Part shown: positions 2,070 through 38,992 of the stretch, piece after piece
Position numbering within the stretch: position 1 is the stretch's first letter
How the letters are laid out: each line of letters opens with the position of its first letter
Source: a virus
DNA length: 64,000 bases
IMG/VR virus record: IMGVR_UViG_3300045988_149975
Strand: one strand, 5' to 3'
The notes under the pieces: model-generated
The model's input: only the letters and a program-made list of their open reading frames with translations
The model's database searches: none
What the model was told of the DNA's origin: nothing
Position numbers and translations under genes: made by a program

Positions 2070-2477
2070 TTAATTCTCCTTATATTTCCTCAAAGTAATA
2101 GAAGTTTTACCATCTGAAAATACATATTCATCATAATTATTAGCAGTGTTCACAGAAATTAAAGGCAAATCAAAATCAATATCTCCCTCAATACAAACAT
2201 TATATTCTGCACCTAATATAAAGGGGTAAAGTGAATCAGCAGGTTCAATCCAATCTTCCTCAATATGCTTACAGTCTTGCCCATTCTCAAATTTAACTCT
2301 GTAAACAAATCTATCATCTTCATAGGCTGTAAATACTACTTCACCTATATCTCCCTTGTTTATTAAAGAATCTTTTACAAAGGTTTTACAAATTCTTACT
2401 TTATCACCATTGTCGAATTTACTTTCTTTAACGATTCTCATTCTTAAACAACTCCTTAAAAATATAATACAGTACAT
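2070..2477 (-). CDS. hypothetical protein
   Basis: 135-aa ORF. Confidence 0.5.
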   Translation of the reverse strand: MYCIIFLRSCLRMRIVKESKFDNGDKVRICKTFVKDSLINKGDIGEVVFTAYEDDRFVYRVKFENGQDCKHIEEDWIEPADSLYPFILGAEYNVCIEGDIDFDLPLISVNTANNYDEYVFSDGKTSITLRKYKEN

Positions 2478-4443
2478 CTACTACAATACTATTACCTGCC
2501 ATTTTATAAAGCTGTGTATTACTTATTCCTTTACATACTTCAATATCCCTATCCTCAAAGCCCATAAGCCTGAAGCACTCTTTAGGAGTAAGTTTACGGA
2601 TTCTATTCTCAATTTTGTAGAGTCCTGTTTTAGCACCTAATCCACCTGCTTCACCTTTAAGAGTAACAGATAAACCGTTTACATCATACACCACCCTTTT
2701 AGCCTGTGGCATACCGCTTGTAAGTTCTGTAAGCTGTGGAACTACAACACCTGTTGCAATTCTATCATCATTTTGTAAGAAATTTGCTTGTGAAGTTTTA
2801 TAATAATTAGCTTTAATAGTTCTACAAGTACCATCCTTTTCAGTACCATAGGGCGTAACAGATTTAAAATGTTTGATGTAATCTTTAACTTTATCATCTC
2901 GCATAAAGTATCTATCCTCTACCTCATTTTCAAGCACATCCTTTAGACTTTTAGTAAGTGGAAACGGCGCAGGAAAGTTAAAACCTTTATCAATATCTTT
3001 CCTAATAGATATTATAAATACTCTTTCTCTCCTTTGAGGTATTCCATAATCTGCGGCATTTAATACCTTCCAATAATTATTATACCCCATCTCACTTAAA
3101 CAGTCAAGTATATAATTAAATTCTTTTGTAAATTTTTTACCAGTGAGATTTTTAACATTCTCACATACTGCATATTTAGGTTTGACAGCATCGATAATCC
3201 TTAAAGCGTCAAACACTAATCCGCTACGAGTTTTTTCACCATTATATTCCAACCCCATTTTCTTACCACTTACAGAAATATCTTGACAATTATGCACTAT
3301 AATGTTATTGACAGTATATGAATTATCATTTTCAACTTCAAGATTGAATACCTCGATAGGCTTTTCAATCATTTCAATAGCTTTAATAGGTACTGCTATT
3401 TTATCTCCTATAACTAATTGATGCAATGCTCTATCAGAAAACTGCGCATTATAACAATCTTTAAAACTATCTTTTTGTCTATCTTTTCTAATACTTGTTG
3501 TAGGTACTACATTATAAAGTTTAATAACAATTCTACACAACTGTAAAAACATCTGCTCATTTATAGTGCTAAACATAAAAGTTGCTCTATCTTTTCTTCT
3601 ATGCCCATCACCACTCATATAACCATCGAAGAATTTAGATAACTGTTCTTTATTTAAAGACACAACCCAATCAGGAATTTTCTTAATACCTGCTCCACTA
3701 CCACAACTATGTATTACAGATTCTAATTTATCATCTATAATTCTGAAGTCAATACACGTTCTTTTACTATGTCCTTCATTATATCTGATATTAGTTAAAT
3801 GTTTTATAAATTCCTCTTTCTTACCTGAACCAATACAAAATATGGGACGTTTCTGATAAAGTTTTTCACAATAACCGTCTGCAAAATATCTACCAAAAAG
3901 CCATAGCCTATCATCATCTAAATCTGTATAGGCAGACTCTGTATTTATATTATAGGTAATGAAATCTGTAAGTTTTAGATCTTTAGCCTTAACCCAAACA
4001 AACTCTCCATCTCTATAAACATATAAAGGATGCTCATTAGTTAAATAAAGATTATAAGCCCCTACCCCTTTAATATGTCTAATACTATTAGAAATTCTTG
4101 ACATCGTTCTTAAAACTTTTTGATAATTATTTGTATGTGTAAGTACATAATCACCTACAATTATATCTTCAATATTTTTATAACCACACTGCACTTTAAT
4201 TTTTGTTCCAGCAGGAACACATGGAAATCCATAAGTTACTAAATCTACTCCAGGAAGTTCGCCTTCATTTACTTTAGTAATATCCCAAAGGTTTAAACTT
4301 TCAGGCACGTTATGGATTAAGGAATATGCTTTACTTGCATACTTATCTACTTCACAATAGTTGACAAGGGTATAATTAATTCCCAATCTTTCAAGGGCTT
4401 TTTCAAAAGCCCCTATACCTCTAAACAAACTTAATAATTTCAT
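2428..4443 (-). CDS. DNA (cytosine-5) methyltransferase interrupted by an intein
   Basis: C5-MTase motifs in order: I (FRGIGAF), IV GFP|C...HN|CQ (PCQ split by the intein), VI VCENVKN, VIII QRRERVFII, X GNSIVV. Without the 311-aa insert the exteins form a roughly 360-aa Dcm-type enzyme. Confidence 0.85.
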   Translation of the reverse strand: MKLLSLFRGIGAFEKALERLGINYTLVNYCEVDKYASKAYSLIHNVPESLNLWDITKVNEGELPGVDLVTYGFPCVPAGTKIKVQCGYKNIEDIIVGDYVLTHTNNYQKVLRTMSRISNSIRHIKGVGAYNLYLTNEHPLYVYRDGEFVWVKAKDLKLTDFITYNINTESAYTDLDDDRLWLFGRYFADGYCEKLYQKRPIFCIGSGKKEEFIKHLTNIRYNEGHSKRTCIDFRIIDDKLESVIHSCGSGAGIKKIPDWVVSLNKEQLSKFFDGYMSGDGHRRKDRATFMFSTINEQMFLQLCRIVIKLYNVVPTTSIRKDRQKDSFKDCYNAQFSDRALHQLVIGDKIAVPIKAIEMIEKPIEVFNLEVENDNSYTVNNIIVHNCQDISVSGKKMGLEYNGEKTRSGLVFDALRIIDAVKPKYAVCENVKNLTGKKFTKEFNYILDCLSEMGYNNYWKVLNAADYGIPQRRERVFIISIRKDIDKGFNFPAPFPLTKSLKDVLENEVEDRYFMRDDKVKDYIKHFKSVTPYGTEKDGTCRTIKANYYKTSQANFLQNDDRIATGVVVPQLTELTSGMPQAKRVVYDVNGLSVTLKGEAGGLGAKTGLYKIENRIRKLTPKECFRLMGFEDRDIEVCKGISNTQLYKMAGNSIVVDVLYYIFKELFKNENR
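3289..4221 (-). mobile_element. intein with LAGLIDADG homing-endonuclease domain inside the C5-MTase
   Basis: Starts with Cys immediately after GFP (residue 75) and ends VHN followed by Cys+1 (residues 384..386). Two LAGLIDADG-like motifs (LFGRYFADGY and FFDGYMSGDG). Splicing would restore GFPCQDIS. Confidence 0.75.
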
Positions 4444-4613
4444 TCGATAACCTCAATTTCATCTACCTGAAAATCTCTAATAATGCTAATGAAATTTAAA
4501 GCGCCGCCGAAGTGGTTATAGAGTTTATCTAATACTTCTTTCTCACTGTCGGCTAATACAATATACTGTTCTAACTTTCCATCATAATAAAATAGAATTA
4601 CACCATAAGTCAT
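4440..4613 (-). CDS. small hypothetical protein (57 aa)
   Basis: Manual translation MTYGVILFYYDGKLEQYIVLADSEKEVLDKLYNHFGG... Strong RBS AAAGGAG upstream. Its stop overlaps the MTase ATG (ATGA). Confidence 0.45.
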   Translation of the reverse strand: MTYGVILFYYDGKLEQYIVLADSEKEVLDKLYNHFGGALNFISIIRDFQVDEIEVIE

Positions 4614-4795
4614 TTATTTTTCTCCTTTAAAATAATATCATAGCCTTTTACTCTTACTTCATTAATTAAATAATTTTCTACAACATCTCCGTATTTCTCA
4701 TTAATGTAATCTCTTACTTCCTTTCTGCTTTTAGCAGCATGGGTCATAATAACTTTATCACCGTAAAAATCCATCTGAACTAAATAGAGTTTCAT
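4610..4795 (-). CDS. hypothetical protein
   Basis: 61-aa ORF, translationally coupled to its neighbours. Confidence 0.45.
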   Translation of the reverse strand: MKLYLVQMDFYGDKVIMTHAAKSRKEVRDYINEKYGDVVENYLINEVRVKGYDIILKEKNK

Positions 4796-5082
4796 TATTC
4801 CTCGCCTCCAATGTTTAACTCTTCTAATGCGTTAAATAAGATGTCATCCATTATTATAAGTCCTTCTTTGAGGAAAAGGTTATCTCCAATCTGACTAAAC
4901 ATTTGTCTTATAAGGTCATAGTCATCTCTTCTGAAAAGCTCTATATCCTCATTATATAACCCATTAATGCCCATTTTAACAGGGGTACTTGCCATAATCA
5001 GATAGTCGCCATTATAGCTATCTCTTACCCAAATTCTTTCAACTTCTACAATATCCTGCTGTTTTAAAAGCTGTACTAACAT
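4795..5082 (-). CDS. hypothetical protein
   Basis: 95-aa ORF. Confidence 0.5.
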   Translation of the reverse strand: MLVQLLKQQDIVEVERIWVRDSYNGDYLIMASTPVKMGINGLYNEDIELFRRDDYDLIRQMFSQIGDNLFLKEGLIIMDDILFNALEELNIGGEE

Positions 5083-5591
5083 TTTACCTGTCCCTCCAAA
5101 ATTTCTTTATAAAAATCATATTTACCATCTTTATCAGTAGTATAACTTCTGCCTGTAAGATGTACACCATCACTTAATAAAAACTTTTTAAAGTAATCAA
5201 TCTTTTTAAGGGTTCTCTTATCAAGTTTTCTATAAACTTCATCAAAATATTTACTGCAATTAAAGTTATAAACAATAGGGATTACTTTACGATTAAACCA
5301 TCTACGCTCTAAAACGTATCTAATAAGCTGTAAACCTTGTGCAACAGCCCTTGCAGCCCTATTAACATGATTACTGTAGTCAATCACTGTAATGTGACGA
5401 CCCATGGCAAGGTTAAGCAGAAAATCATTATCCAAATCCTGAATAACCATATCCCAATTCTTTTGTTCACATTGAGTAGATTGAATACGAATAAATCTTA
5501 CACTGCCAATAGGTTTACAGATTGTTTTTTCCTCATGTAATTCCCAATCCTTTAAGTATTCAATACCATTAGTAAGATTTAAGTAAATCAT
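5076..5591 (-). CDS. hypothetical protein
   Basis: 171-aa ORF immediately downstream of a consensus promoter. Confidence 0.5.
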   Translation of the reverse strand: MIYLNLTNGIEYLKDWELHEEKTICKPIGSVRFIRIQSTQCEQKNWDMVIQDLDNDFLLNLAMGRHITVIDYSNHVNRAARAVAQGLQLIRYVLERRWFNRKVIPIVYNFNCSKYFDEVYRKLDKRTLKKIDYFKKFLLSDGVHLTGRSYTTDKDGKYDFYKEILEGQVKC

Positions 5592-5610
5592 TTTATCACC
5601 TCATTAATAA

Positions 5611-5657
5611 TGCCTTATCTTTGTACTTATTATAGCAAAGATAAGGCATCTTGTCAA
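5611..5657 (-). promoter_or_regulatory. consensus sigma-70 promoter with an operator-like inverted repeat over the -10
   Basis: Minus strand TTGACA (5652..5657), 17-nt spacer, TATAAT (5629..5634). A 13-bp inverted repeat TGCCTTATCTTTG / CAAAGATAAGGCA (5611..5623 and 5636..5648) brackets the -10. Confidence 0.5.
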
Positions 5658-5665
5658 TAGGTAAA

Positions 5666-6130
5666 TTACATATTTTTTACTACACTTACATAATATCTAA
5701 AGGCTTTTCCTGGGGGAACATCTTTATCTGTAAGCCAAAGTTTAGTATAATTTACATAATAATCCGTATTATCACCAAATAAAGGCTTTAAATCACTGTA
5801 AGCCATATTAAGAACATAATACCAATCATAACTATTAAAATGTTCTTTATTAAAATCTATACCTGCTTTTTGTGCAAGTTGAATAGACTGTTCCACAGTC
5901 CAATGTCCACCCCTTGTACCGTCAACATTTTCCATTCCCCTTACAGCTTCGTCAGCAAGCATGGGAGTAAAACATTCACCATAAATAGCAGTATAGATGG
6001 CTTTGAACAGTTTTAAAGATTCTTCTTTATGCTCTTCAAAATAATTTTTAAAAAAAGTCATCATGAGTTTTAAAGCATCAGGATTACTTTCTGCTGCTGT
6101 AATTAAAGATTTAATATCCATAATTTGCAC
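5666..6130 (-). CDS. hypothetical protein
   Basis: 154-aa ORF. Confidence 0.5.
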   Translation of the reverse strand: MQIMDIKSLITAAESNPDALKLMMTFFKNYFEEHKEESLKLFKAIYTAIYGECFTPMLADEAVRGMENVDGTRGGHWTVEQSIQLAQKAGIDFNKEHFNSYDWYYVLNMAYSDLKPLFGDNTDYYVNYTKLWLTDKDVPPGKAFRYYVSVVKNM

Positions 6131-6296
6131 TACCTTTCTTTCCTTCTAAAATATCATCAAAGAAATTCATAAAATTACTACCATAACCCTCAAAACATTC
6201 TTTATATATATCAGGGTCTATAATAGCCTTTTTGAACTTATCACACCCATAAGTATAGTTGAAATTTCTAAAGTATTTACACTCCCTGCACCGCAT
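6111..6296 (-). CDS. small Cys-rich protein
   Basis: 61 aa, reads MRCRECKYF...YGCDKF...YKECFEGYG. Confidence 0.4.
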   Translation of the reverse strand: MRCRECKYFRNFNYTYGCDKFKKAIIDPDIYKECFEGYGSNFMNFFDDILEGKKGSANYGY

Positions 6297-6480
6297 AGAA
6301 CTTTACCTCTTTTCCTGCATATAATTCAACCCAATCCTTTAACTCTACTATACAATCAAGTATATATGTTTTACCGTTTATTACAATATATACATCTTTT
6401 CCTGCCCTTAATCCAAGTAAATCATTGGATTTTAAAGTAATATCAGTATTAGAAGGTTTATAATTCATTTGTTTCTCCAT
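6277..6480 (-). CDS. hypothetical protein
   Basis: 67-aa ORF. Confidence 0.4.
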   Translation of the reverse strand: MEKQMNYKPSNTDITLKSNDLLGLRAGKDVYIVINGKTYILDCIVELKDWVELYAGKEVKFYAVQGV

Positions 6481-6628
6481 ACAAGATTACCTCACCATTA
6501 ATAAAATCTAAATCATCAATGTATGTACAAAAATTTTCATATTTACTATCAATACTAATAAAACATTCTACATTCCCTTGCTTATCTCTTACTTCAATGA
6601 GTGCATCAATAAGTTCATTTAATTTCAT
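6458..6628 (-). CDS. hypothetical protein (start moved to the internal Met)
   Basis: The track ORF 6458..6667 probably starts at MKLNELIDAL (RBS AAAGGAGAGG upstream). That ATG overlaps the stop of the upstream MTase reading frame. Confidence 0.4.
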   Translation of the reverse strand: MKLNELIDALIEVRDKQGNVECFISIDSKYENFCTYIDDLDFINGEVILYGETNEL

Positions 6629-7326
6629 TAGAAATCCTCTCCTTTGCAATGTTGAAATAATTTTCATCTTTTTCTATTCCAATAAACTTACGATTATTCT
6701 TTAAAGCTGCTACACCAGTGCTACCACTACCCATACAATTATCCAATACTACATCACCTTCACTTGTATAAGTCTTAATAAAGTATTCAAGCAATGCAAC
6801 AGGTTTTTGTGTAGGATGTAATCTACATTTATCTTTATTAAAATCTAATACATCTACTGGATAGCGTTTTCCATCATTTACCGTTACTACTGATACTTGC
6901 TCTCCATAATTACTACTACCTCTACCACTTTTGCAGGTATAAGGTTTCCCTTCTCTAAATTGTGGATGGTACGGGGGGGGAGGAATAGAATACTAAAATA
7001 TTTTCATGGTTCTTTAAAGGCATTTTCTTTGCGTTTAAATGTCCTGTTCCCTGTGGTTTACGCCATATCCACTCATACTTGAGATTTTTGATATTGCTTA
7101 CACCTAATACCTTATCAAAAGGAGTCTGTGCAAAGAGTAGGATAGCACCATTATCTTTTATAATACGATTATATTCTTTCCACATTAAGTCCAAATCTAT
7201 AACACTATCCCATTTATTCCTTGTAGTACCAAAAGGCGGATCACAAAGAATTAAATTAACACACTTATCAGGTATATCTTTCATTACCTCTAAACAATCA
7301 CCTAAATACAATTTTAGTTTATCCAT
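6615..7326 (-). pseudogene. beta-class N6-adenine/N4-cytosine DNA methyltransferase, frameshifted in a G8 homopolymer
   Basis: N-terminal frame (6955..7326) carries motif IV DPPF (ILCDPPFGTT). After the G8 tract the -1 frame encodes LHPTQKPVALLEYFIKTYTSEGDVVLDNCMGSGSTGVAALKNNRKFIGIEKDENYFNIAKERI (HPTQKP and motif I FxGxG) and ends at 6615. Removing one G, or adding two, restores a single ORF of about 236 aa. Confidence 0.7.
6973..6980. repeat. G8 homopolymer (C8 on the coding strand) at the methyltransferase frameshift point
   Basis: Direct read: acGGGGGGGGagg in roughly 30 % GC DNA. Confidence 0.9.
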
Positions 7327-7886
7327 CTAACTACAGTTTCTCCTTTAAATCCCTTTTCCCAAATAAACCAAGCATAAGCAATCGCATTGGATGGGTATTT
7401 ATCAAAATCACCATTCTTTGCGCAAGAAAGCCTACCCCTTGCAACATATACATACTTTGGTGGATTTTCTTTATAAAATTCTCCACGCTCTTTGCCTTCT
7501 AAAAATTGAAGGCGTAAAAAGAACGCTACAGAGTTACCTTTAGGAATAATATCTAATGCGTGTTTCACAAATGGAAGTGCTTGTTTGTAAGGAGGATTAG
7601 AAACAATATCTCCGCCCCATTCAGTCACATCAAAGAAATTTTGTACCTTACCATATCCTCTATCATAAAGGTCAATACTTTCTACAATATAGTTAGCTTT
7701 TTCTAACTCTTTACTGATATGCCCCTCACCACAACAACACTCTAAAATTTTCGGAGCAAATTTGTACTCTGCAAGTAGTAATTGTACTGCTTTAGGCTGT
7801 GTAGCATAGTAATCCTCTAATTGCCTTTCTTCCCTTGAATGATTACTTGCACCAAGAGTTACATATACATTATGCTTTCCGTTCAT
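7314..7886 (-). CDS. putative N6-adenine DNA methyltransferase (motif I followed by NPPY)
   Basis: ILECCCGEGHIS (motif I-like) followed by DIVSNPPYK (motif IV NPPY). 190 aa, intact. Confidence 0.6.
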   Translation of the reverse strand: MNGKHNVYVTLGASNHSREERQLEDYYATQPKAVQLLLAEYKFAPKILECCCGEGHISKELEKANYIVESIDLYDRGYGKVQNFFDVTEWGGDIVSNPPYKQALPFVKHALDIIPKGNSVAFFLRLQFLEGKERGEFYKENPPKYVYVARGRLSCAKNGDFDKYPSNAIAYAWFIWEKGFKGETVVRWIN

Positions 7887-8214
7887 ACTTAACCTCCAAT
7901 TTTACTTTAGTGCTAAATTCAGAGTCTTTCAATGCTTCAATTCTTTCTTTCAAATACTTACAGCAATTTTCCTCTGTCATTGTTTTAATAAATTCGCAGT
8001 TCTGTAACAAAACTTTCATTAAATAATCTTCAGTAGGGCAAAAATCGTACATTTTATCACTATGCGCTTTAAGCACATACCTATCGAATGTTACTGTTAA
8101 ATCAGTAATATAGCTACTTCCATAATCACAAGTGGGGCAGCCTTTAAAGGCTTCTTTATCATAATCAATGTTTACAATACCACCGTCTACTAATTTCATT
8201 AAATAATCTTTCAT
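7870..8214 (-). CDS. hypothetical protein
   Basis: 114-aa ORF with several Cys (CPTCDYG, CPTEDY). Confidence 0.45.
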   Translation of the reverse strand: MKDYLMKLVDGGIVNIDYDKEAFKGCPTCDYGSSYITDLTVTFDRYVLKAHSDKMYDFCPTEDYLMKVLLQNCEFIKTMTEENCCKYLKERIEALKDSEFSTKVKLEVKYERKA

Positions 8215-8721
8215 TTTTTAATCTCCTCAAATATAATTTGTTTTGGTAAAATATTATGACATACATATACGCTTGAAAACGGTGGATTAAGAGATGGTTT
8301 TTGTTCTCTATAATCTTTGAAGTATGCAACTCTCTTATTAAAGTACATAATTTCAAAGTCATTATCTTTGAACATATTAAATCTCTTTTGGCTTTCAAAT
8401 AATCCTACAACACCTACAAGCATTGCAAAGGGTTTACCAATCTCAAACAGCCTTTGTAATACCTCGCCCTTTAAAGAATAGGGAGGATTACTTATAATAT
8501 AATCACAATCAGGAATAGGCTCTTTAAAGAAATCTTTACCCTCATTTATATGTGAGTGTATAACCTCATTTCCCCCCCCCTAAAATCTTTACAAAATTCG
8601 ACTCTTCAGTATCAAAGGGACACCAAATTGTAGAACCAGGTTTTAGATATTTAATTAAAGGTTCAATAGCATATACAGGAGTGTAAAATTCATCATTACC
8701 GCTGCTTGCCACTTTATCCAT
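8211..8721 (-). pseudogene. phage Dam-like N6-adenine DNA methyltransferase, frameshifted in a G9 homopolymer
   Basis: N-terminal frame MDKVASSGNDEFYTPVYAIEPLIKYLKPGSTIWCPFDTEESNFVKILGGGK stops right after the tract. In the -1 frame it continues NEVIHSHINEGKDFFKEPIPDCDYIISNPPYSLKGEVLQRLFEIGKPFAMLVGV... (equal to track ORF 8211..8423). The DEFYTP N-terminus plus NPPY is typical of small phage Dam-family MTases. Removing one G gives an ORF of about 169 aa. Confidence 0.7.
8572..8580. repeat. C9 homopolymer (G9 on the coding strand) at the second methyltransferase frameshift
   Basis: Direct read: cattTCCCCCCCCCtaaaa. Confidence 0.9.
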
Positions 8722-8723
8722 TT

Positions 8724-9056
8724 TCATTCCTTATCATACCTTTCTACGTTAGGTTTATCAAAAGTTTCCCACTTATAAGCACGCCAACCAGTTATAATAG
8801 AACCGTTACTCGCTACTACATAACAAAAATCACATTGACGCATTGGTATTCTTACACACACTTTTATAATCTTATCACCACTCATTGCCATTTCAAAAAC
8901 CATATTTTTTGAAAGTTTATCCTTTTGTACAAGCGGTAATCTTTTTTGTCTTGCCCTTACCATAAAATGATGAGTAAAATTTACCCTTTCAAAGCCATCC
9001 CAAAACTTCTGCATATCTACTTTAGGCATAAATATATTTTTGTGATACAGTTTCAT
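8724..9056 (-). CDS. hypothetical protein (start moved to ATG)
   Basis: The track ORF uses a TTG start 5 codons upstream. The ATG (MKLYHKNIF...) lies 8 nt after GGAGG and just downstream of a consensus promoter. Confidence 0.45.
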   Translation of the reverse strand: MKLYHKNIFMPKVDMQKFWDGFERVNFTHHFMVRARQKRLPLVQKDKLSKNMVFEMAMSGDKIIKVCVRIPMRQCDFCYVVASNGSIITGWRAYKWETFDKPNVERYDKE

Positions 9057-9087
9057 AATAACAACCTCCAATCTTTTCTATGGTTTT

Positions 9088-9116
9088 ATTATACACTACT
9101 ATTATCACTATGTCAA
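9088..9116 (-). promoter_or_regulatory. consensus sigma-70 promoter
   Basis: Minus strand TTGACA (9111..9116), 17-nt spacer, TATAAT (9088..9093), immediately after the terminator hairpin. Confidence 0.5.
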
Positions 9117-9120
9117 TACC

Positions 9121-9154
9121 TTTTAATAAAAAAGCCGCCCAAAATCGAGCGGCT
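9121..9154 (-). terminator. rho-independent terminator
   Basis: 6-bp GC-rich stem AGCCGC/GCGGCT (9133..9138 and 9149..9154) followed on the minus strand by TTTTTTATTAAAA. Sits at the 3' end of gene 9153..9464. Confidence 0.55.
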
Positions 9155-9464
9155 ATTTAGTTAAAGTTTCTTTTACATAAATCTTATATTTAGAATTGCC
9201 ATAAGTAGAACTTTCAAATGTATTTGTTGGAATTTTAAAAACACTTTGAAAATTCTCACCAACTGATGATGTGTCTATACAAATAAAATAATCCTTGCTT
9301 ATATAGACAATAAAAGCACAAGTGAGAAAATCCTTTCCCTCATCTATTAATATTCTAACAGGGAAATTGTTACTAACATATATACAACTCATTAAAAATA
9401 ATAAGTTGCCATTATTAGGAACATATTTATCCCCATTCTCACTAATAATATATTCGGGAAACAA
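9153..9464 (-). CDS. hypothetical protein
   Basis: 103-aa ORF ending in the terminator. Confidence 0.45.
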   Translation of the reverse strand: MFPEYIISENGDKYVPNNGNLLFLMSCIYVSNNFPVRILIDEGKDFLTCAFIVYISKDYFICIDTSSVGENFQSVFKIPTNTFESSTYGNSKYKIYVKETLTK

Positions 9465-9477
9465 CTCTACTCACCTC

Positions 9478-9666
9478 TTAATCTTCATCTTCCAAATCAC
9501 TAACATTTATAAAATCAATAGTTTTAACTGTAGCAAGATTTACATATTTTAAAATATAATTATCTTCAAATACTGTTAAATCCTTGTCATTAATCGTAAA
9601 ATCTTCACGATCAGCATAAAGTTCCTCCATGTCATTATTAGCATAAGTAATTAAAATCTGTACCAT
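9478..9666 (-). CDS. small acidic hypothetical protein (62 aa)
   Basis: Internal ATG (MVQILITYANNDMEEL...) preceded by AAGGAGGAA. The longer track ORF (MVWWCCRF...) lacks an RBS and runs into the promoter leader. Confidence 0.4.
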   Translation of the reverse strand: MVQILITYANNDMEELYADREDFTINDKDLTVFEDNYILKYVNLATVKTIDFINVSDLEDED

Positions 9667-9815
9667 TATATATTCCTCCTTAATTAAAACCCATAATAAT
9701 GGTGCATAACACCAAGCGCAAAACCTACAACACCACCAAACCAAAAGTAACCATTCGTAAATACTTCTTTAACTTTATTATATAATTCCACTCTTTTCAC
9801 CTCCATTATGTGCTT

Positions 9816-9844
9816 ATTATAACATATTTTTACTGAAATGTCAA
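9816..9844 (-). promoter_or_regulatory. consensus sigma-70 promoter
   Basis: Minus strand TTGACA (9839..9844), 17-nt spacer, TATAAT (9816..9821). Confidence 0.5.
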
Positions 9845-9850
9845 GTAAAA

Positions 9851-9889
9851 TTTATTCCACACTTTGACGCATTTTTATTCCACACTTTG
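9851..9889. promoter_or_regulatory. two 16-bp direct repeats just upstream of the -35 (candidate regulator-binding sites)
   Basis: TTTATTCCACACTTTG at 9851..9866 and 9874..9889 (23-bp periodicity), 7 and 30 nt upstream of the -35 on the transcribed strand. Confidence 0.4.
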
Positions 9890-9890
9890 G

Positions 9891-10964
9891 CTATTCATTG
9901 TTTTTAAGTAAGAAATCAGGATTAATGACTTTAAAGGATATATCCTCTCTATAATTTCTTACAACAATACCTTCCCTATCTATATCATATAAAAGAGATT
10001 TACCTCTTGCTTTTTCTACAATATCATGAATAGTTGGGGGAAGTATAAAATCATTTGTAAGTACAGGAACATTGTTAAGCCCTAATTTTTTGCAGATAAA
10101 ACTTGCCTTATCTTGTTCAATGCGTAAATCATCTATAATTACATTGTAAACAAAGAAGTCATATCCTGAAACATGATATTTATTTCCTTGTATAGATTTA
10201 CCTATAATCTCACCTTGTATTACTACTTTATTAGCATTATATGTTTTAGCTATATCTTTTAAACAATCTTTTAAACCAAAACGCCTTGCCACTTCCCAAT
10301 ATGGGGAATCATCTTCTTTTCTTAACCATACATTTCTACTGCATACACCAAATTTTCCTTCATTTAAAAAATATGTAGCACTACATCCGTCTAATTTTTC
10401 AGTCATATAGAACTTAACATTGTCCTTATGCCATTTTTCATATTGATTAGGTAAATTTTGTACCCTTTCTTCATCTGTCTTATTACATATATTTACAGGA
10501 AATGAAGCATTTGTAGTTTTAAATTTCGCTAAAAGTTTTCTAAACCACCTGTATTTCATTAAAAACCGTAAAAATCTTGGGTAACTTACACTTTGTTTAA
10601 TAAGTTTTGTTTCAGCTTCAGCCTGCGGGTCATATTTAGTTATACCAAGTTCTTTTGTAACATCATCACCGATTTCATGATAACTGCCCCTTAAATAACT
10701 AATAGGTAATACCAAACCTTGTGAAATTTGCTTCCTTAATTTAATAGTTCTTACCCTGTACTTTCTATCCTTCATAAAAGCAAATTCAGGACGAGGAGGC
10801 AAAATGGAATCTACTTCTACAAAAATAACTTTATCCCCTACATTAAAATTATCAGATTTAGATACAACACATTCCCATCCCCTTACAGTAGCCTTGAGTA
10901 TTCTATCCGCATTGGGAATAGGTTCTAAACTTTCAATTCTTGCTATAGTTGCTAATTTACGCAT
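9891..10964 (-). CDS. ATP-dependent RNA ligase with N-terminal OB-fold, tRNA-binding-like domain (Rnl5/DraRnl-like)
   Basis: Nucleotidyltransferase motif I KLDG (MTEKLDGCSATYF). The N-terminal 60 aa (LATIARIESLEPIPNADRILKATV...VGDKVIFVEVDSILPP) resemble tRNA-binding OB folds. Confidence 0.55.
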   Translation of the reverse strand: MRKLATIARIESLEPIPNADRILKATVRGWECVVSKSDNFNVGDKVIFVEVDSILPPRPEFAFMKDRKYRVRTIKLRKQISQGLVLPISYLRGSYHEIGDDVTKELGITKYDPQAEAETKLIKQSVSYPRFLRFLMKYRWFRKLLAKFKTTNASFPVNICNKTDEERVQNLPNQYEKWHKDNVKFYMTEKLDGCSATYFLNEGKFGVCSRNVWLRKEDDSPYWEVARRFGLKDCLKDIAKTYNANKVVIQGEIIGKSIQGNKYHVSGYDFFVYNVIIDDLRIEQDKASFICKKLGLNNVPVLTNDFILPPTIHDIVEKARGKSLLYDIDREGIVVRNYREDISFKVINPDFLLKNNE

Positions 10965-10974
10965 TTATTATACC

Positions 10975-12840
10975 TCACTTTACTACCTCTGCTTCAATAG
11001 GTTTTTCTTCTGTTAAAAGTGCTTCAAGTATTCCTCCGCTGCGTGGATTACTACCCTTTACAACGGTACTTTCTATAGTTCCACCTTTTACTACCGTTTT
11101 ACTTACTGTTACAGGATTACCATTTACCTCATTCTGTAATTTATGTAGTTTTTCTAAATAACCCCATGCATCTTTCATTAAATCAGAAGTTCTTTCTGTA
11201 GCTATACCACCTTGTTGAGTTTCTTGTAAATATGATTTCTGTACTCTTTCCAAAGCTAAATCGGCTAAAGAAGTCATACCATCTATTACATCATCTTGAT
11301 TACGAGTATTAAACTTACGGAAAAGATTATCGTAAGCACAGATATATCCTGCTTGATATTCAGGACAATTAGTTGCTAATACGCACCTGTCACATGATAA
11401 TCTTGCTATTGCTTTAGTAGAAATTTTCTTTTGTTTTCTTAATTTTTTAATACCTGCCTTAATATTACCGTCTTTATCATATATAGGTGTAATATCATTT
11501 CTAATAAGTTCTTTTTCTACCTCATCCTTATCATAACCTGCTGTAAGCAGCGCAGGAAGAAGTTTTCCACATTCCTCTCTTGATAACTCCACCTCTGTAT
11601 ACTCTTTATCTGTAATATACTGCTGACGCTCTAATGCTTTACGTTCATTATCTAAAGGCTCATGTAAATTCTGTAAAGCCCTCTCCTGTCCATTTAAAGC
11701 GTTTTTAAAAGCCTCTTTTAAGAAGGCTATACATTTATCCTTTGTATTATATTTAACACCCTCTGCGCCAAAATATGCGCAAATTTCAACTAAATCTTCA
11801 AGCTGATAAGCATTTAAGTCTTTATTATTAATAAAGTTATAAAAATCTAATAATAAAGTAGTGCCAAAATCTTTAGGTACTTGTGTATCTATACCTGCTT
11901 CATCTAACTTATCTTCCCAATCGTTCATATCAGTTGAAAACCACTCATAAGAAGGTAACTTATACATCTTTCTATCACTCCAATACTTTTTAGGGAACAT
12001 AACCTGTTTTACATACTCTTCCATTTTCTTAAAAGCAATAGCTGATGCTTTCATAAGTTCAGTTGACGCTTCTATATCCAATAATTTAGGATTAAGTTTA
12101 AGTGCTTCTAACTTTCCACGATATTCCCCATCTTTCCATTGCTCTTTTTTCAACCTTTTAAGTTTACCACCTTCAAAATAGTTTACTTCCCCGAACTGTG
12201 AACCCGTAAGCCAACTTGTCATATCAGCAGAGAAAAAAGGATGTTTGAGTAATAATTTATTACTTCCTACACCAAAACCATGTATTTTAGCTTTATTTTT
12301 GACTGCTATCTCAAAAAGTTTATCAATATACTCAATAGGATTATCTAAACTTGCGTTCATTTCAACAGCAGAAAAACCAACATAAGGATGTTTTCTACAA
12401 AGTTTATCAAAATCCTCAAAGCTATCATCTAAATGATATACATATATTACAGGTATACCCTCTTCTTCTAAAGGCATAAAATATTCTTTACGCCATCTTT
12501 CTACAACATCTTTGCCAACAAGACTTGATAAGTCAAGTTCTACACAAGCAAAGATTAAATCTCTATGCTTTTTAACAAAGCCTATGTATTTCTTTAGATA
12601 ATCTTCCCACCACTCTACGCTTTTATCACGATATTGAGCGTCATTTATGAAAGTATGTGCGCCACTGTCAATAAGAAATTTCATTCCTTTTTTCTTGTAT
12701 AACCGTTCTTCTATCTCCTCTTTACCTCTACGCCTTATATAGTAATAAGACAATAATAAATTTTTAGTGACTGCACTTGCTATATCATAAATTTGTTTAG
12801 GCTCAACACCTGATAAAAATAATGTAAATTCGCTTTTCAT
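10975..12840 (-). CDS. dpdA: tRNA-guanine-transglycosylase-superfamily protein, candidate 7-deazaguanine DNA transglycosylase (DpdA-like)
   Basis: FLIDSGAHTF resembles the TGT DSGGFQ substrate motif. The C-terminal region has a Cys cluster (CDRCVLATNCPEYQAGYIC) like the TGT zinc site. It sits in a block with QueC and QueE. 621 aa. Confidence 0.45.
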   Translation of the reverse strand: MKSEFTLFLSGVEPKQIYDIASAVTKNLLLSYYYIRRRGKEEIEERLYKKKGMKFLIDSGAHTFINDAQYRDKSVEWWEDYLKKYIGFVKKHRDLIFACVELDLSSLVGKDVVERWRKEYFMPLEEEGIPVIYVYHLDDSFEDFDKLCRKHPYVGFSAVEMNASLDNPIEYIDKLFEIAVKNKAKIHGFGVGSNKLLLKHPFFSADMTSWLTGSQFGEVNYFEGGKLKRLKKEQWKDGEYRGKLEALKLNPKLLDIEASTELMKASAIAFKKMEEYVKQVMFPKKYWSDRKMYKLPSYEWFSTDMNDWEDKLDEAGIDTQVPKDFGTTLLLDFYNFINNKDLNAYQLEDLVEICAYFGAEGVKYNTKDKCIAFLKEAFKNALNGQERALQNLHEPLDNERKALERQQYITDKEYTEVELSREECGKLLPALLTAGYDKDEVEKELIRNDITPIYDKDGNIKAGIKKLRKQKKISTKAIARLSCDRCVLATNCPEYQAGYICAYDNLFRKFNTRNQDDVIDGMTSLADLALERVQKSYLQETQQGGIATERTSDLMKDAWGYLEKLHKLQNEVNGNPVTVSKTVVKGGTIESTVVKGSNPRSGGILEALLTEEKPIEAEVVK

Positions 12841-13025
12841 CTATCAAAGGAACGGTATAAAGGATTACGGCGAAGCCTATCTACTCTCGAACTTAACCTA
12901 TTCCATGTTCGCTGATTCCATGTCGGTCGATTTCGGCGTAAACGCCCTGTATCATTACGTTTAATGTCAATAGACACATCATTATTACTATTGCCTAATG
13001 TATTATAATCTTTTCTACTACCCAT
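12837..13025 (-). CDS. small arginine-rich basic protein (questionable)
   Basis: 62 aa, about 25 % Arg, in locally GC-richer DNA. Could be a nucleic-acid-binding peptide or non-coding. Confidence 0.25.
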   Translation of the reverse strand: MGSRKDYNTLGNSNNDVSIDIKRNDTGRLRRNRPTWNQRTWNRLSSRVDRLRRNPLYRSFDR

Positions 13026-13603
13026 TATAATTCCCCCATTTCATTTTTAGTTAAATAGAATTTATATTTCTGTGCTTCTCGCCATTTACAGTCAGTACAT
13101 TGTCCACAAGGCTCTCCTACATTATTTGCAAAATTACAGGAAAAAGTATCTTCTAAATTAACATTTAAAGAGCAGCCTATACGATACACTTCATCTTTAT
13201 CCTTGTCTATAAATGGTGCAATTACTTTATATTTGTCCTCAAATTCCACTCTTAAATAAGCATTTATAGCATCCACCCACTTTTGAGTAGTATCTATAAA
13301 TTCTGTATTAGCAATTAATCCTATATAAATATTAGCGTCCTTTGGATATACCCTATTAATTAATTCTAATACAAATCTTGCATTACGGCAAGGATTAAAA
13401 CCATCTTTTTCAATTTTGGAGCGCATTTTATCAAAATAATCAAACTCTTTATTCTCCAAAATTTCACCTACATTAATAAGTTTACTATCTGTATCTTCCA
13501 TAATAAAGAAAAATGTTTTAGGATTTAAACCTTTATGTTCCATCCATGCCTTCAACACTGTACTGTCATAACCATGACTCCATAATAAAAAATTATCTCT
13601 CAA
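13025..13603 (-). CDS. queC: 7-cyano-7-deazaguanine synthase QueC-like
   Basis: N-terminal PP-loop variant LLWSHGYDSTV (as in SGGxDS). C-terminal zinc motif CGQCTDCKWRE (CxxCxxC), as in QueC. Confidence 0.65.
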   Translation of the reverse strand: MRDNFLLWSHGYDSTVLKAWMEHKGLNPKTFFFIMEDTDSKLINVGEILENKEFDYFDKMRSKIEKDGFNPCRNARFVLELINRVYPKDANIYIGLIANTEFIDTTQKWVDAINAYLRVEFEDKYKVIAPFIDKDKDEVYRIGCSLNVNLEDTFSCNFANNVGEPCGQCTDCKWREAQKYKFYLTKNEMGEL

Positions 13604-13808
13604 TCCAAACTACGCCCCTTTTCTTTCTATATTTTGTAACAAGAGTATATAAACTCTTTGTACCAAATATAAATACCTTATTAAAGTTGAAAGCATTAAG
13701 AATATCTATATCGCCACCATAAAAAATTTCAAAAGGTACATTAAACTTTTTACAGAAATTATAAACTGCCACAATATTTATGTCCCCTATACTGCAAAAG
13801 ATATTCAT
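13593..13808 (-). CDS. hypothetical protein
   Basis: 71-aa ORF. An A9 tract lies immediately 5' of its ATG. Confidence 0.35.
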   Translation of the reverse strand: MNIFCSIGDINIVAVYNFCKKFNVPFEIFYGGDIDILNAFNFNKVFIFGTKSLYTLVTKYRKKRGVVWIER

Positions 13809-13868
13809 TTTTTTTTGCCATTTAAGTGAAATTCAAGCACATCTGATATATCCTCTTCTGTCAAAATC

Positions 13869-14375
13869 TTATTTGACAGGACAAGTGCTTGCTGCATTTA
13901 ATTTTACCTCCAAGTCTGTTAAGTTATCAACAGAACTATCATCTAAATAAACGTGGGCAAATACTTTTCTTGCTCTTAAATTTTCTATCCACCATTTCAT
14001 ACCGTCAGGGAACATTTCTTTTATACGCTCCAAATCATCATTAACAGCGTCAAACTCTAATCCCAACTTTTTACAATAAGAAACTGCCTCATCTAAACTC
14101 TTACCACACCTGCAAGTCCAAAGGATTAATTCGTTCCCTGCTTCTTTTAATTCTATGAGTTTTTCTATTACACATCTACCGCTTTTATCTTCTTTAAGAT
14201 AGCCAATATTCGGAAAAGCATTTTCTACGATAGTTCCATCAAAATCTACTGCTATAATCATTTTATACTCCTTATAAAATAGTGCGCCAAAAGGCGCACC
14301 ATAATTAACATTTACTATAGCCACAATTATTACAATAAGCACACTTACCATCAGGAATAAGAGTATACTCACCAC
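13869..14375 (-). CDS. HAD-superfamily hydrolase (nucleotidase-like)
   Basis: DxDxT motif IIAVDFDGTIV near the start of the soluble part, after an N-terminal hydrophobic segment. Overlaps the 3' end of the RNR gene. Confidence 0.5.
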   Translation of the reverse strand: MVSILLFLMVSVLIVIIVAIVNVNYGAPFGALFYKEYKMIIAVDFDGTIVENAFPNIGYLKEDKSGRCVIEKLIELKEAGNELILWTCRCGKSLDEAVSYCKKLGLEFDAVNDDLERIKEMFPDGMKWWIENLRARKVFAHVYLDDSSVDNLTDLEVKLNAASTCPVK

Positions 14376-19445: not shown

Positions 19446-19477
19446 CTTAAAAAAGAAGCCCCCATAAGAGGGCTTTT
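19446..19477 (-). terminator. rho-independent terminator after the SpoVS-like gene
   Basis: Stem AAGCCC/GGGCTT (19456..19461 and 19470..19475) with an 8-nt loop, followed on the minus strand by CTTTTTTAA. Confidence 0.5.
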
Positions 19478-38551: not shown

Positions 38552-38604
38552 ATTTTCTCTTACTTTAATAACCTCTGATAAATTTCCTTTACCTTTTCCT
38601 GCTT

Positions 38605-38910: not shown

Positions 38911-38992
38911 ATTCGCTGAAGCATTATTGACATTAACTGAACGAGAACTGCAACTCGAACTGTTATTCCAGTTACTGCCGAGTTTCGCCTTT
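38877..38992 (-). repeat. DGR template repeat (TR)
   Basis: 116 bp aligning with 39151..39266. About 32 mismatches, every one at a plus-strand T of the TR, which is an A on the transcribed minus strand, changed to C, A or G in the VR. Confidence 0.8.

Follow-up and report, generated by a model that had tools for sequence, protein, structure and literature searches.

A DNA-modification gene cluster with constitutive and putatively phase-variable methyltransferases in an uncultured human-gut phage

Introduction

In the phasevarions of Haemophilus, Neisseria, Helicobacter, and Campylobacter, mod genes that contain simple-sequence repeats (SSRs) encode phase-variable DNA methyltransferases. A change in the length of a repeat within the methyltransferase ORF moves the gene between ON and OFF frames, the gene remains under selection though it is often OFF, and the result is gene regulation or defense. 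Homopolymeric G/C runs in coding sequence likewise produce frameshift subpopulations in phages. Campylobacter Fletchervirus phages carry polyG tracts in receptor-binding genes (Sorensen 2021), T-even phages possess contingency loci, of which rII-type genes are targets, and Bordetella phage BPP-1 has been mentioned as carrying a polyG run in a methylase gene (both in preprint 10.1101/2025.10.21.683753). Our search of the literature found no analysis of phage methyltransferases switched by SSRs.

Phages may also carry 7-deazaguanines in their DNA, for which the transglycosylase DpdA is a signature in all phages tested; the share of G that enzymes of the DpdA1 type replace there is 0.1-30% (PMC10516641). 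A role in restriction evasion is presumed for phage DpdA systems, and some phages are documented to have partial pathways that draw on intermediates from the host (PMC6884629). The described systems closest to the one reported here are the DpdA1-type systems of Enterobacteria phage 9g (dG+) and Escherichia phage CAjan (dPreQ0), together with one predicted for Bacillus phage BCD7, a protein of which has been listed as DpdA (Hutinet 2019). Each of these three phages encodes FolE and QueD.

Here we analyze 64,000 nucleotides (the window) of an uncultured, widespread human-gut phage with a genome of ~91-101 kb and a GC content of 31%. The window probably contains a DNA-modification (anti-restriction) module made up of a constitutive layer and a switchable one. 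If this is correct, the phage population hedges its bets against bacterial restriction through switchable methylases.

Results and Discussion

Predicted genes for 7-deazaguanine synthesis and insertion

All seven genes listed in an earlier note on this DNA, four for methyltransferases and three for 7-deazaguanine enzymes, are present, each on the minus strand. The note's core idea of a DNA-modification gene cluster, probably anti-restriction, that joins a DNA-type transglycosylase to 7-deazaguanine synthesis genes also holds. The enzymatic activities named below are those predicted for each family.

The gene proposed to be TGT/DpdA-like (10975..12840, minus strand) indeed encodes a long-form DpdA-type guanine transglycosylase of 621 aa (phrog_887, 1.4e-65). 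A TGT-like TIM barrel makes up its N-terminal ~285 aa (AF2 N-domain pLDDT 85-95), and its C-terminal extension of ~330 aa carries a conserved 4-Cys cluster. The closest isolate is BCD7, whose gp021 is homologous over its full length, long C-terminal extension included (33% identity across 97% of length; tblastn). The protein also matches the validated DpdA of 9g (E 6e-9, tblastn), with which it has in common the TGT-like barrel and the residues D58-S59-G60, H187, and D206 (DSG/HGF/Asp in 9g), all invariant, but it is twice as long as 9g DpdA (317 aa). The top PDB matches of the structural model are Z. mobilis TGT, and its top viral folds are phage proteins named 'queuine tRNA-ribosyltransferase', which are of the DpdA type.

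As in other phage DpdA systems, a QueC-like gene adjoins dpdA and a QueE gene lies in the same module. The QueC-like gene (13025..13603, minus strand, TTG start) encodes a compact PP-loop/zinc protein of 192 aa. Its assignment as QueC stands as far as the match to PF06508 (56 bits; gathering score 22), but this is not a typical QueC, since the good match to the QueC model is confined to the model's C-terminal two-thirds, the TIGR00364 score is 47.8 (cut-off 150), and the PP-loop is altered, reading SGGYDS in distant family members and SHGYDS in this phage's lineage. Cys156, Cys166, Cys169, and Cys172 are invariant in the family alignment. Relative to BCD7 QueC the protein is ~25 aa shorter, with an alignment that begins at residue 7 and with SHGYDS instead of SGGxDS. 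A conserved Arg-rich ORF of 62 aa (12837..13025, minus strand) lies between this gene and dpdA and overlaps each of them; it is also a 62-aa gene in the relatives covering the region, and it gave no family hit in profile searches. Located 5 kb upstream of the dpdA/queC-like pair, the gene at 18417..19058 (minus strand) encodes, as claimed, a QueE-type radical-SAM enzyme (7-carboxy-7-deazaguanine synthase). Its top three NCBIfam matches are all QueE models (among them TIGR04349, 2.6e-52, and TIGR03963, 2.9e-45, both with scores under the equivalog cut-offs), and it also matches phrog_2076 (2.1e-36) and is 49% identical to BCD7 QueE.

Unlike in BCD7, 9g, and CAjan, neither FolE nor QueD was found in the sampled genome of this phage. 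The two are not recognizable in the window, as had been noted, and they were not found in the sampled remainder of the ~91-kb genome in relatives, so the suggestion that they lie elsewhere is unsupported, though a small stretch may have escaped sampling. Given this lack, the QueE substrate CPH4, which FolE and QueD make, would be supplied by the host. We propose that phage QueE and the QueC-like enzyme would convert host CPH4 into a 7-deazaguanine base for which DpdA would exchange guanines of the phage DNA as part of the constitutive layer. Since the QueC-like enzyme is atypical, the inserted base may be preQ0, ADG, or something else.

Could these three proteins instead act on tRNA, boost host queuosine metabolism, or be inactive, given the missing FolE and QueD and the mutated PP-loop? 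Sequence by itself is no proof that DNA is the substrate, and the scores of the QueC-like protein and QueE below the equivalog cut-offs fit such a role as well. We nevertheless judge it unlikely, because the DpdA-like protein has no TGT hit in a Pfam search and groups with phage DpdA, including those of 9g and BCD7, and away from tRNA TGT; because DpdA has marked DNA 7-deazaguanines in every phage tested (PMC10516641); because all three genes are kept wherever the locus of a relative extends over them; and because phages with partial pathways are known to use host intermediates (PMC6884629). DNA rather than tRNA is thus the predicted substrate of the DpdA-like protein. On these grounds 7-deazaguanine modification of the phage DNA is likely, in a system known from its genes and with a chemistry that is predicted. 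The modification is probably partial; the range of replacement reported for DpdA1-type enzymes (PMC10516641) does not imply the hypermodified genome that the earlier note had envisaged.

Tract-free methyltransferases and an intein

The gene at 2428..4443 (minus strand) encodes the C5-cytosine DNA methyltransferase that had been claimed for it (PF00145, E 3.9e-66, in two stretches), but the ORF also holds an intein. The translation displays the motifs FxGxG, PC, ENV, and QRR in a 360-aa extein, which is interrupted by a 311-aa intein with a LAGLIDADG homing endonuclease (C75..N385; 3289..4221, minus strand; Intein_splicing 4.7e-11, Hint_2, LAGLIDADG_3). The intein immediately precedes the motif IV catalytic Cys (GFP|C...HN|CQDIS). 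Some relatives have intein-free alleles (327-420 aa), and one of them, L001, is missing precisely window positions 3290..4218 and thereby reads GFPCQDIS. This intein resembles phage LAGLIDADG inteins in its Cys1...His-Asn/Cys+1 junctions, in its insertion at a catalytic residue, and in its presence/absence polymorphism with clean empty sites. Those inteins, however, sit in phage replication and nucleotide-metabolism genes, whereas the host protein here is a C5-cytosine DNA methyltransferase. Because the +1 nucleophile of the intein is the methyltransferase's own catalytic cysteine, methylation by this enzyme would depend on splicing; the enzyme would belong to the constitutive layer but be active only once the intein is spliced out. 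This intein and the two hypermutable tracts described below, the most informative features of the locus, were absent from the earlier note.

An NPPY amino-methyltransferase, NPPY-1, lies where it had been placed, at 7314..7886 on the minus strand (phrog_799, 2e-60; weak Pfam Dam match). It is intact, free of tracts, and 190 aa long, as it is in about 175 of the 187 contigs listed (~94%). This adenine methyltransferase would always be available to the phage as part of the constitutive layer.

Two methyltransferase genes interrupted at homopolymeric tracts

Although genes for four methyltransferases are present, expression of four is not expected from the window, since two of them are frameshifted and OFF. 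The first (6615..7326, minus strand) is, as claimed, a beta-class N6A/N4C DNA methyltransferase with a DPPF motif, but it is not a single ORF. One piece (6955..7326) and a second (6615..6794 plus upstream codons) match PF01555 positions 1-107 and 170-221, the N- and C-halves of the family, and the frameshift lies at a C8 tract on the coding strand (6973..6980, minus strand; G8 on the plus strand). Intact alleles in relatives encode 237 or 238 aa, match PF01555 with an E of 8.4e-33, and match CcrM/DpnA/RsrI in the PDB. The second gene, NPPY-2 (8211..8727, minus strand), had been described as a single Dam-like ORF at 8211..8721. A G9 tract on the coding strand (8572..8580, minus strand; C9 on the plus strand) divides it into two pieces (8566..8727 and 8211..8564), and three-frame translation reconstitutes a single protein of ~171 aa. 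The family differs as well: the intact allele matches PF13651 EcoRI_methylase with 30.6 bits (gathering score 26.4) and Dam weakly (E 0.008), making NPPY-2 an EcoRI-methylase-like gamma-class NPPY adenine methyltransferase.

The C8 and G9 tracts are the only G/C runs of at least 6 nt in the 64 kb, and both are located at frameshifts. The chance expectation is 0.3 matches. In a census of 22 related gut-metagenome contigs, the runs span C7-C13 and G7-G12, and the frame state is that predicted from tract length and flank in every case. With the flanks of the window, the predicted ON lengths are C7, C10, and C13 for the beta-class gene and G8 or G11 for NPPY-2. The beta-class tract occurs as C7, C8, C9, C10, and C13 and the gene is ON in 6 of 17 tract-bearing copies; NPPY-2, in which a neighboring AAA/AA change accompanies the variation in its tract, is ON in 3 of 19 (L086, L133, and L136). 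Exact-sequence counts in public assemblies give 17-31 ON versus 61 OFF contigs for the beta-class gene and ~36 ON versus ~164 OFF for NPPY-2. The ON fraction is thus roughly 20-30%, compared to ~94% intact for the tract-free neighbor NPPY-1. Tract length varies within groups of contigs whose 685-bp flanks are 100% identical, and 14 of 22 contig pairs with no more than 2 flank substitutions differ in tract length, while an A7 run close by is unchanged in 20 of the 22 contigs. Switching of NPPY-2 may be slow, in that its tract is invariant (G9) in the most frequent haplotype and, of the three ON alleles, two originated by deletion of an adjacent A. The segments downstream of the frameshifts have pN/pS values of 0.03-0.08, the same as an intact control gene (~0.03 for both halves of the beta-class gene; 0.08 past the frameshift in NPPY-2).

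From this pattern across assemblies, we think it probable that both genes are contingency (phase-variable) loci rather than pseudogenes. Polymerase slippage at the long C or G run within each coding sequence would change the run length and move the gene into or out of frame, presumably reversibly within a clone. A phage population would then be a mix of up to four methylation genotypes, of which the window, with both genes OFF, would represent one. Such switching could be a form of bet-hedging, since added methylation would guard against cognate restriction enzymes but would expose the DNA to methylation-dependent nucleases, and the nuclease repertoire would vary between hosts.

The resemblance to bacterial phasevarions lies in the repeat within the ORF and in selection on a gene that is often OFF. 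In contrast to phasevarions, these are orphan phage methyltransferases outside any cellular R-M system, they presumably pay off by protecting the phage genome, and switching within a clone is a prediction from population data. The targets are two anti-restriction methyltransferases rather than the receptor-binding or rII-type genes of Fletchervirus and T-even phages, and the evidence, unlike that for known phage tracts, is population-genomic and drawn from many human-gut metagenomes. BPP-1 is similar in that it has a DGR in addition to its polyG-bearing methylase gene, and the window also contains a DGR.

RNA polymerase can slip on runs of 8-13 identical bases, and the codons CCC_C and GGG_G are prone to +1 shifts. 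Thus, all alleles might be expressed through transcriptional slippage or ribosomal frameshifting, with tract length tuning the level of expression and no ON/OFF state. This would also account for purifying selection despite consensus states that are mostly OFF, and the window allele has a UGA stop two codons past the G run. However, the required shift is +1 in some alleles and -1 or +2 in others, so there is no single conserved programmed frameshift, and in-frame alleles are common enough to explain the selection. We consider expression of all alleles quite improbable.

We give still less credence to the idea that the long homopolymers were misread or misassembled and that the real genomes all carry intact methyltransferases. 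Long G/C homopolymers are error-prone, many of the contigs are automated short-read assemblies, and one (L091) stops within a C13 run, but a span of 7-13 nt goes well past ±1 miscalls, many independent contigs carry identical alleles (41, 11, 8, and 7 for individual exact products), and neither the nearly constant A7 run nor the intact tract-free methyltransferase in ~94% of contigs fits with general error. Even noisy calls would leave unexplained why long tracts in a 31% GC genome are confined to two methyltransferase genes. Decay of the split genes as pseudogenes that broke at the tracts by chance, to which we assign equally little weight, would suit their OFF state in most copies and the deletions described below, but it conflicts with strong purifying selection on out-of-frame downstream segments, with halves that are free of further stops and indels in both haplogroups, with ON alleles among identical-flank backgrounds, and with uninterrupted tracts kept across haplogroups ~20% diverged at synonymous sites.

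The putatively phase-variable loci are themselves dispensable at times: one or both have been lost in some contigs, and L002 carries an additional 110-bp deletion inside the beta-class gene, which shows a relaxed need for them in some lineages. The association of tracts with methyltransferases recurs in numerous unrelated phage loci from the gut and rumen. Among NPPY-methyltransferase homologs at 78 other phage loci, 12 G/C runs of at least 8 nt were observed versus 1.8 expected, and other beta-class methyltransferases are broken at a G8/G9 run in a different position.

The window's only two long G/C runs each coincide with a break in a methyltransferase gene

Phages are known to counter restriction with methyltransferases (MTases) and 7-deazaguanines, and an earlier note on this DNA had proposed four MTases beside a 7-deazaguanine pathway. 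Two of the MTase assignments stand as proposed: the C5-cytosine MTase at 2428..4443 matches PF00145 (3.9e-66) and presents the motif IV catalytic Pro-Cys once an intein is removed, and the NPPY MTase at 7314..7886, which we call NPPY-1, matches phrog_799 (2e-60). The beta-class N6A/N4C MTase at 6615..7326 was assigned to the correct family but is not a single ORF here. Two ORFs match the N- and C-terminal halves of PF01555, and the frame breaks between the DPPF and GSGST motifs at a coding-strand C8 run, 6973..6980. The alleles of relatives that are in frame (ON) form a continuous ORF of 237 or 238 aa (PF01555, 8.4e-33). The gene described as Dam-like at 8211..8721 is something else, its intact allele scoring 16.3 bits on Dam (PF05869; cut-off 28.1) and passing EcoRI_methylase with 30.6 bits (cut-off 26.4). 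The stretch 8211..8727 comprises two pieces of a single NPPY MTase, NPPY-2, and its frameshift lies at a coding-strand G9 run, 8572..8580. Both sites were located by three-frame translation, in which a one-base frame change at the tract restores each split MTase; we therefore reject introns and small insertions as the origin of the splits.

No other run of G or C in the 64 kb reaches 6 nt, and runs of 6 or 7 nt are absent. G8 is matched 3 times, against an average of 0.3 in dinucleotide-preserving shuffles, and the two tract-bearing genes together occupy about 2% of the window. An exact-pattern scan of viral contigs for the flanks of the C tract returned no match because the flank in the IMG/VR relatives differs by one base.

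Tract length varies among close relatives and sets the reading frame

The window is a segment of a tailed-phage genome with 31% GC and all genes on the minus strand. A megablast search of deposited phages with 11 kb of the window returned no match; the lineage is uncultured. Near-identical sequence is found on many contigs from human-gut metagenomes, about 90-101 kb in length, and the lineage is abundant in public human-gut data, with hundreds of contigs.

We tabulated tract length, flank and reading frame in 22 distinct related contigs, in which the beta-class tract ranges from C7 to C13 and the NPPY-2 tract from G7 to G12. For beta-class genes with a GTAC flank, C7, C10 and C13 are predicted to be ON. 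C8 (five contigs) and C9 (three) were out of frame (OFF), while C10 (one contig, 237 aa) and C13 (two contigs, 238 aa, one of which stops inside the tract) were ON. With an AATAT flank the predicted ON lengths are C6, C9 and C12; here C7 (two contigs), C8 (one) and C10 (one) were OFF and C9 (three) was ON. The NPPY-2 alleles that are ON combine G8 with AAATGAG (one contig) or G9 with AATGAG (two contigs), all other combinations being OFF. Frame state agreed with prediction in every contig of the census, and each 15-23 kb locus lacks any other G/C run of at least 7 nt. C-tract lengths vary even among contigs whose 685-bp flanks are 100% identical (C8/C10/C8 and C8/C9/C8/C9), and length differs in 14 of the 22 contig pairs separated by at most two flank substitutions. 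The NPPY-2 tract is less volatile, being G9 in all seven contigs of the commonest haplotype.

Allele counts were obtained by exact-sequence look-ups in a collection of 15 billion proteins. For the beta-class products queried, OFF N-terminal fragments occur on 61 contigs (3 + 11 + 6 + 41) and ON products on 17 (8 + 7 + 2), with 31 ON among all listed members. Listed members of NPPY-2 include ON forms of 168-172 aa on about 36 contigs and OFF fragments on about 164, and those of NPPY-1, which is tract-free, are full length on about 175 of 187 contigs. ON fractions are about 20-30%, compared with 94% intact for NPPY-1, and values near one fifth to one third match the expectation for unselected drift of tract length. 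When the intact beta-class allele served as the query for truncated forms, only full-length homologues were returned.

Length polymorphism of a simple sequence repeat (SSR) within an ORF, among close relatives, is a hallmark of contingency loci, and it is what we observe. Likewise, tract length sets the ON or OFF frame of genes that selection otherwise maintains, as the substitution patterns described below indicate.

Leaky expression, programmed frameshifting, gene decay and assembly error

OFF alleles may be expressed leakily if transcription slips or ribosomes shift frame on the runs. As the sole explanation of the split genes, a conserved programmed frameshift is rejected, since the direction of the shift that would be needed differs among alleles. 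We evaluated pseudogene decay by comparing the window with a haplogroup diverged by about 5% (contigs L001, L002 and L004). Downstream of the frameshifts, pN and pS are 0.007 and 0.214 for the C-terminal half of the beta-class gene and 0.035 and 0.457 for the C-terminal part of NPPY-2; the intact control NPPY-1 gives 0.011 and 0.165. The pN/pS ratios of 0.03-0.08 beyond the frameshift, in the correct frame, indicate purifying selection, and together with the presence of ON alleles in identical backgrounds they lead us to reject decay. We also discount assembly noise, because the same alleles recur in many independent samples and the span of lengths exceeds that of miscalls.

The longest A/T run of the window, an A9 run on the coding strand (T9 on the plus strand) at 13808..13816, was considered as a third switch. 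Shortly upstream of the QueC-like gene, it breaks the frame of a conserved 100-aa ORF and leaves pieces of 30 and 71 aa. Of 22 contigs, 20 have A7 at this run with the ORF in frame, and A9 is confined to the window and contig L090, which are probably the same strain. We therefore rejected it as a switch; it is a lineage-specific frameshift that serves as a stability control. Since NPPY-1 is mostly intact and 20 of 22 contigs have kept the A7 run, the breakage is a specific property of the G/C tracts.

Gene content varies as well. NPPY-2 is missing from L137, L140 and L142, and the beta-class gene from L004, L133, L142 and L144. L143 carries a mosaic beta-class allele that differs in its N-terminal and central parts and has no tract, L144 has an NPPY-1 broken by a G4-to-G3 deletion, and L002 has an additional 110-bp deletion within the beta-class gene. 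These losses, deletions and the mosaic allele make the MTase repertoire the most plastic part of the module.

G/C tracts in the MTase genes of other phage loci

We examined 78 other metagenome loci, retrieved solely because they encode an NPPY-1 homologue. Of their 37 G/C runs of at least 8 nt, 12 lie inside the NPPY-1 homologue, where 1.8 would be expected (binomial P about 1e-7). The 12 are in frame without exception, in part an effect of ascertainment. At three unrelated gut-phage loci, L045 (about 2500), L046 (about 11214) and L054 (about 11211), the neighbouring beta-class MTase is broken at a G8 or G9 run, and the site of the break is another one, lying between TQKP and DNCMGSGTT motifs. 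In-frame G8 runs also occur in another type of MTase, which has a DIPY motif (L040, L041, L053, L054 and L057, about 12150). Given the enrichment of runs in these loci and the broken beta-class genes elsewhere, the association between G/C tracts and phage MTase genes is not peculiar to the lineage of the window.

A switching model and its precedents

Contingency loci are established in bacteria, where SSR-switched MTases are a classic example; here, the SSR tracts instead sit in orphan MTase genes of a phage. In the model that we propose, polymerase slippage during phage replication would change tract length. In a cell with ON genomes, all phage DNA would become methylated, and progeny would therefore carry the parental pattern. 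Mixed populations would then hedge between restriction enzymes, which the methyl mark blocks, and modification-dependent nucleases, which the mark triggers. In the lineage studied here, up to four methylation combinations would be available on top of constitutive m5C, m6A and 7-deazaguanine marks. We regard the chances as evenly balanced that hypermutable G/C tracts in orphan MTase genes serve human-gut phages as contingency loci, such that a single lineage continuously yields progeny with differing methylation patterns. Tracts of this kind recur in MTase genes across many unrelated phage loci, which suggests that such switching is a general and hitherto undescribed strategy among phages.

For phages, contingency loci are a very recent claim, made for receptor-binding genes and for T-even genes. 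Hypermutable polyG tracts have been shown in the receptor-binding genes of Campylobacter phages (Sorensen 2021), whereas the tracts of the window lie in MTase genes. Contingency loci have been claimed for T-even phages in a 2025 preprint, which also mentions in passing an unstudied polyG tract in the methylase gene of the Bordetella phage BPP-1 (10.1101/2025.10.21.683753). We found no analysis of SSR-switched phage MTases in the literature that we searched.

If the model holds, it describes a viral mirror image of bacterial phase-variable restriction-modification and a hedge between hosts with classical and hosts with modification-dependent restriction enzymes. It would open a new dimension in the arms race between phages and hosts, with the "epigenotype" diversified rather than fixed, and could explain how one phage species persists across hosts with differing restriction repertoires. 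Linking of phages to hosts by methylation motifs could be confounded by switching, and a frameshift in an MTase gene of a viral metagenome assembly is no reason to dismiss the gene as a pseudogene or an error. Since the lineage is abundant in public human-gut data, tract switching can be tested at once with public reads.

A long-form DpdA-like transglycosylase

The product of 10975..12840 (621 aa), which the earlier note had called TGT/DpdA-like, matches phrog_887 (1.4e-65). Grouping with tRNA-modifying TGTs would have counted against the reading in the note; we saw no such grouping, and the protein relates to phage DpdA. It has no sequence match in Pfam, NCBIfam or PDB, with no Pfam TGT at E <=0.01, and the informative searches were those against PHROGs, tblastn against phages, and fold comparison. 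By tblastn it matches gp021 of Bacillus phage BCD7 over 97% of its length (33% identity, 3e-51), and residues 49-259 match the validated DpdA of Enterobacteria phage 9g (E 6e-9). The matches also included many proteins of actinophages and Pseudomonas phages that bear the annotation "queuine tRNA-ribosyltransferase" or DpdA-like. BCD7 gp021 is listed in the DpdA column of Supplementary Data 1 of Hutinet 2019, beside the FolE, QueD, QueE and QueC of that phage. The 621-aa protein belongs to a protein cluster of 175 sequences, of which none bears a functional name.

In an alignment of 21 family members, D58-S59-G60, E101, D103, H187 and D206 are invariant, and D58-S59-G60-A61 (DSGA), H187-G188-F189 (HGF) and D206 align with the same residues of 9g DpdA. 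These include the catalytic Asp of the DSG(A) motif and the second Asp conserved in DpdA. The conserved histidine, H187 here, is one that the DpdA2 subfamily lacks (PMC6884629). An AlphaFold (AF2) model has a pLDDT of 85-95 over residues 1-285. Its 15 best PDB fold matches are all Zymomonas mobilis TGT (E 1.7e-4, target TM about 0.5), and its best viral fold matches are phage DpdA-type "queuine tRNA-ribosyltransferase" proteins of about 300 aa (target TM 0.65-0.80). The predicted structure contains a TGT-like (beta/alpha)8 barrel, the fold of DpdA, and we file the protein as a predicted long-form DpdA1-like enzyme. A C-terminal extension of about 330 aa (residues about 290-621; 10975..11970, minus strand) is common to BCD7 DpdA. 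This extension bears an invariant Cys cluster (C483, C486, C492 and C501), is modeled with low confidence, and weakly resembles PHROGs whose annotation is small terminase subunit (E 1.3e-7), a faint hint that the C-terminal half may be small-terminase-like.

A reduced set of 7-deazaguanine synthesis genes

Both synthesis genes named in the earlier note are recognisable as QueC-like and QueE-type, with qualifications. The QueC-like protein (13025..13603) scores 56 bits on PF06508, against a gathering score of 22. On the NCBIfam QueC equivalog it reaches 47.8, far below the cut-off of 150.3, and only profile positions 83-204 align well. Its PP-loop, and that of the two closest clusters, reads SHGYDS and departs from SGGxDS; family members at 46-57% identity have SGGYDS, and BCD7 QueC has SGGFDS. 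The zinc cysteines C156, C166, C169 and C172 (C...CxxCxxC) are invariant in the alignment of this compact family (about 190-205 aa), BCD7 QueC included. For the QueE-type radical-SAM protein (18417..19058), which is 49% identical to BCD7 QueE, the top three NCBIfam models are QueE models. The best score is 177.6 bits and all three fall below their cut-offs of 206-300, and the Cys cluster is C-x5-C-x2-C rather than CxxxCxxC. The end-to-end overlap of the QueC-like gene, a conserved 62-aa ORF and dpdA suggests that the three are co-expressed.

The earlier note had recognised no FolE or QueD. We probed the window, all relatives and the DNA walked on both sides with the BCD7 proteins by tblastn, and searched 93 ORFs with Pfam. 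Neither protein was found in the window or in the sampled rest of the genome of about 91 kb, between whose sampled stretches a short piece may lie uncovered. A second Pfam scan listed the best 25 of 43 families, beyond which a weak match (E above about 6e-5) could lie. Of the full preQ0 pathway (FolE, QueD, QueE and QueC), the phage was found to encode QueE and a QueC-like protein. A complete pathway is not obligatory, as phages with dpdA alone exist (PMC6884629). In the most economical model, the host would supply CPH4 through FolE and QueD, the phage QueE would convert CPH4 to CDG, the QueC-like enzyme would convert CDG to ADG or preQ0, and DpdA would insert the resulting base into DNA, the sequence leaving the choice of base undecided. 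The description of the genome as probably hypermodified is not warranted, since DpdA1-type enzymes replaced 0.1-30% of G in the phages tested and complete replacement is a property of DpdA3 (PMC10516641).

Both 7-deazaguanine systems and multi-MTase phages are already known, and what is unusual here is the reduced gene set. A cassette of DpdA, QueC-like protein and QueE without FolE or QueD, and with an altered PP-loop, lends itself to asking which pathway steps have to be encoded by a phage and what base ends up in the DNA.

Between NrdJ and QueE lies a gene for a conserved 198-aa protein (17198..17794, minus strand; phrog_6721) with no relative in Pfam, NCBIfam or PDB, and these databases give no support to a ThyX-like identity. 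Because the protein occurs in every examined relative that covers the position, it is a candidate for an extra component of the pathway or of nucleotide metabolism. Separately, some relatives carry a variable accessory radical-SAM gene just past the low end of the window (L083 16542..17441 and L086 17146..17841; 226-299 aa, PF04055, 5.5e-7). Judged by gene order only, it is apparently missing from L001 and from the part of the lineage that the window covers.

Inteins and homing endonucleases

An intein with a LAGLIDADG endonuclease occupies residues 75-385 of the C5-MTase ORF and brings it to 671 aa. Its junctions read TYGFP/CVPAGT and IIVHN/CQDISV, and it matches Intein_splicing, Hint_2 and LAGLIDADG_3 in Pfam. 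L001 lacks exactly this 933-bp insert (about 3290..4218 in the window) and reads TYGFPCQDISV. By sequence, the element has Cys1, a terminal His-Asn, a +1 Cys, a Hint domain and a precise empty-site allele, as expected of an intein. Since the +1 nucleophile is the motif IV catalytic cysteine, C5 methylation would require splicing.

Such elements are polymorphic across the genome, in NrdJ, RNA ligase, the large terminase and the capsid region. A mini-intein lies at about 15895..16326 in the class II ribonucleotide reductase (RNR) NrdJ (14305..17184, minus strand); relatives have a 1132-aa form, in which the intein includes a LAGLIDADG domain, or an intein-free 816-aa form. In L086 and L136, a free-standing LAGLIDADG ORF lies between two RNR pieces, an arrangement that looks like an intron. 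The RNA ligase of the DRB0094 family (9891..10964, minus strand) is intein-free with 357 aa in the window, and in many relatives it has 720 aa with an intein and a LAGLIDADG_2 endonuclease (L083 5834..7996). Relatives have an RtcB ligase past the window's low end. Among the capsid genes lie interrupting ORFs for LAGLIDADG_2 homing endonucleases (61872..62759, minus strand; also L093-L095), and the large terminase has an intein in some relatives (803 versus 543 aa). Selfish elements are unusually numerous in this genome.

A diversity-generating retroelement and a possible host group

A complete diversity-generating retroelement (DGR) occupies 37262..40186 on the minus strand. It comprises a reverse transcriptase (37262..38551, minus strand; RVT_1, 4.6e-16), a template repeat (38876..38989) and a variable repeat (39150..39263) at the 3' end of the ORF 39125..40186; mismatches between the repeats fall almost exclusively at template adenines. 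The DGR is a second diversification system in this genome, paralleled in BPP-1, which combines a DGR with its polyG tract.

As to the host, the phage encodes an Amidase_3 endolysin, detected by Pfam scan, and a homologue of SpoVS, stage V sporulation protein S (19476..19757, minus strand; PF04232, 8.3e-24). Together these suggest a host among the Firmicutes, and the SpoVS homologue hints that it is a spore-forming one.
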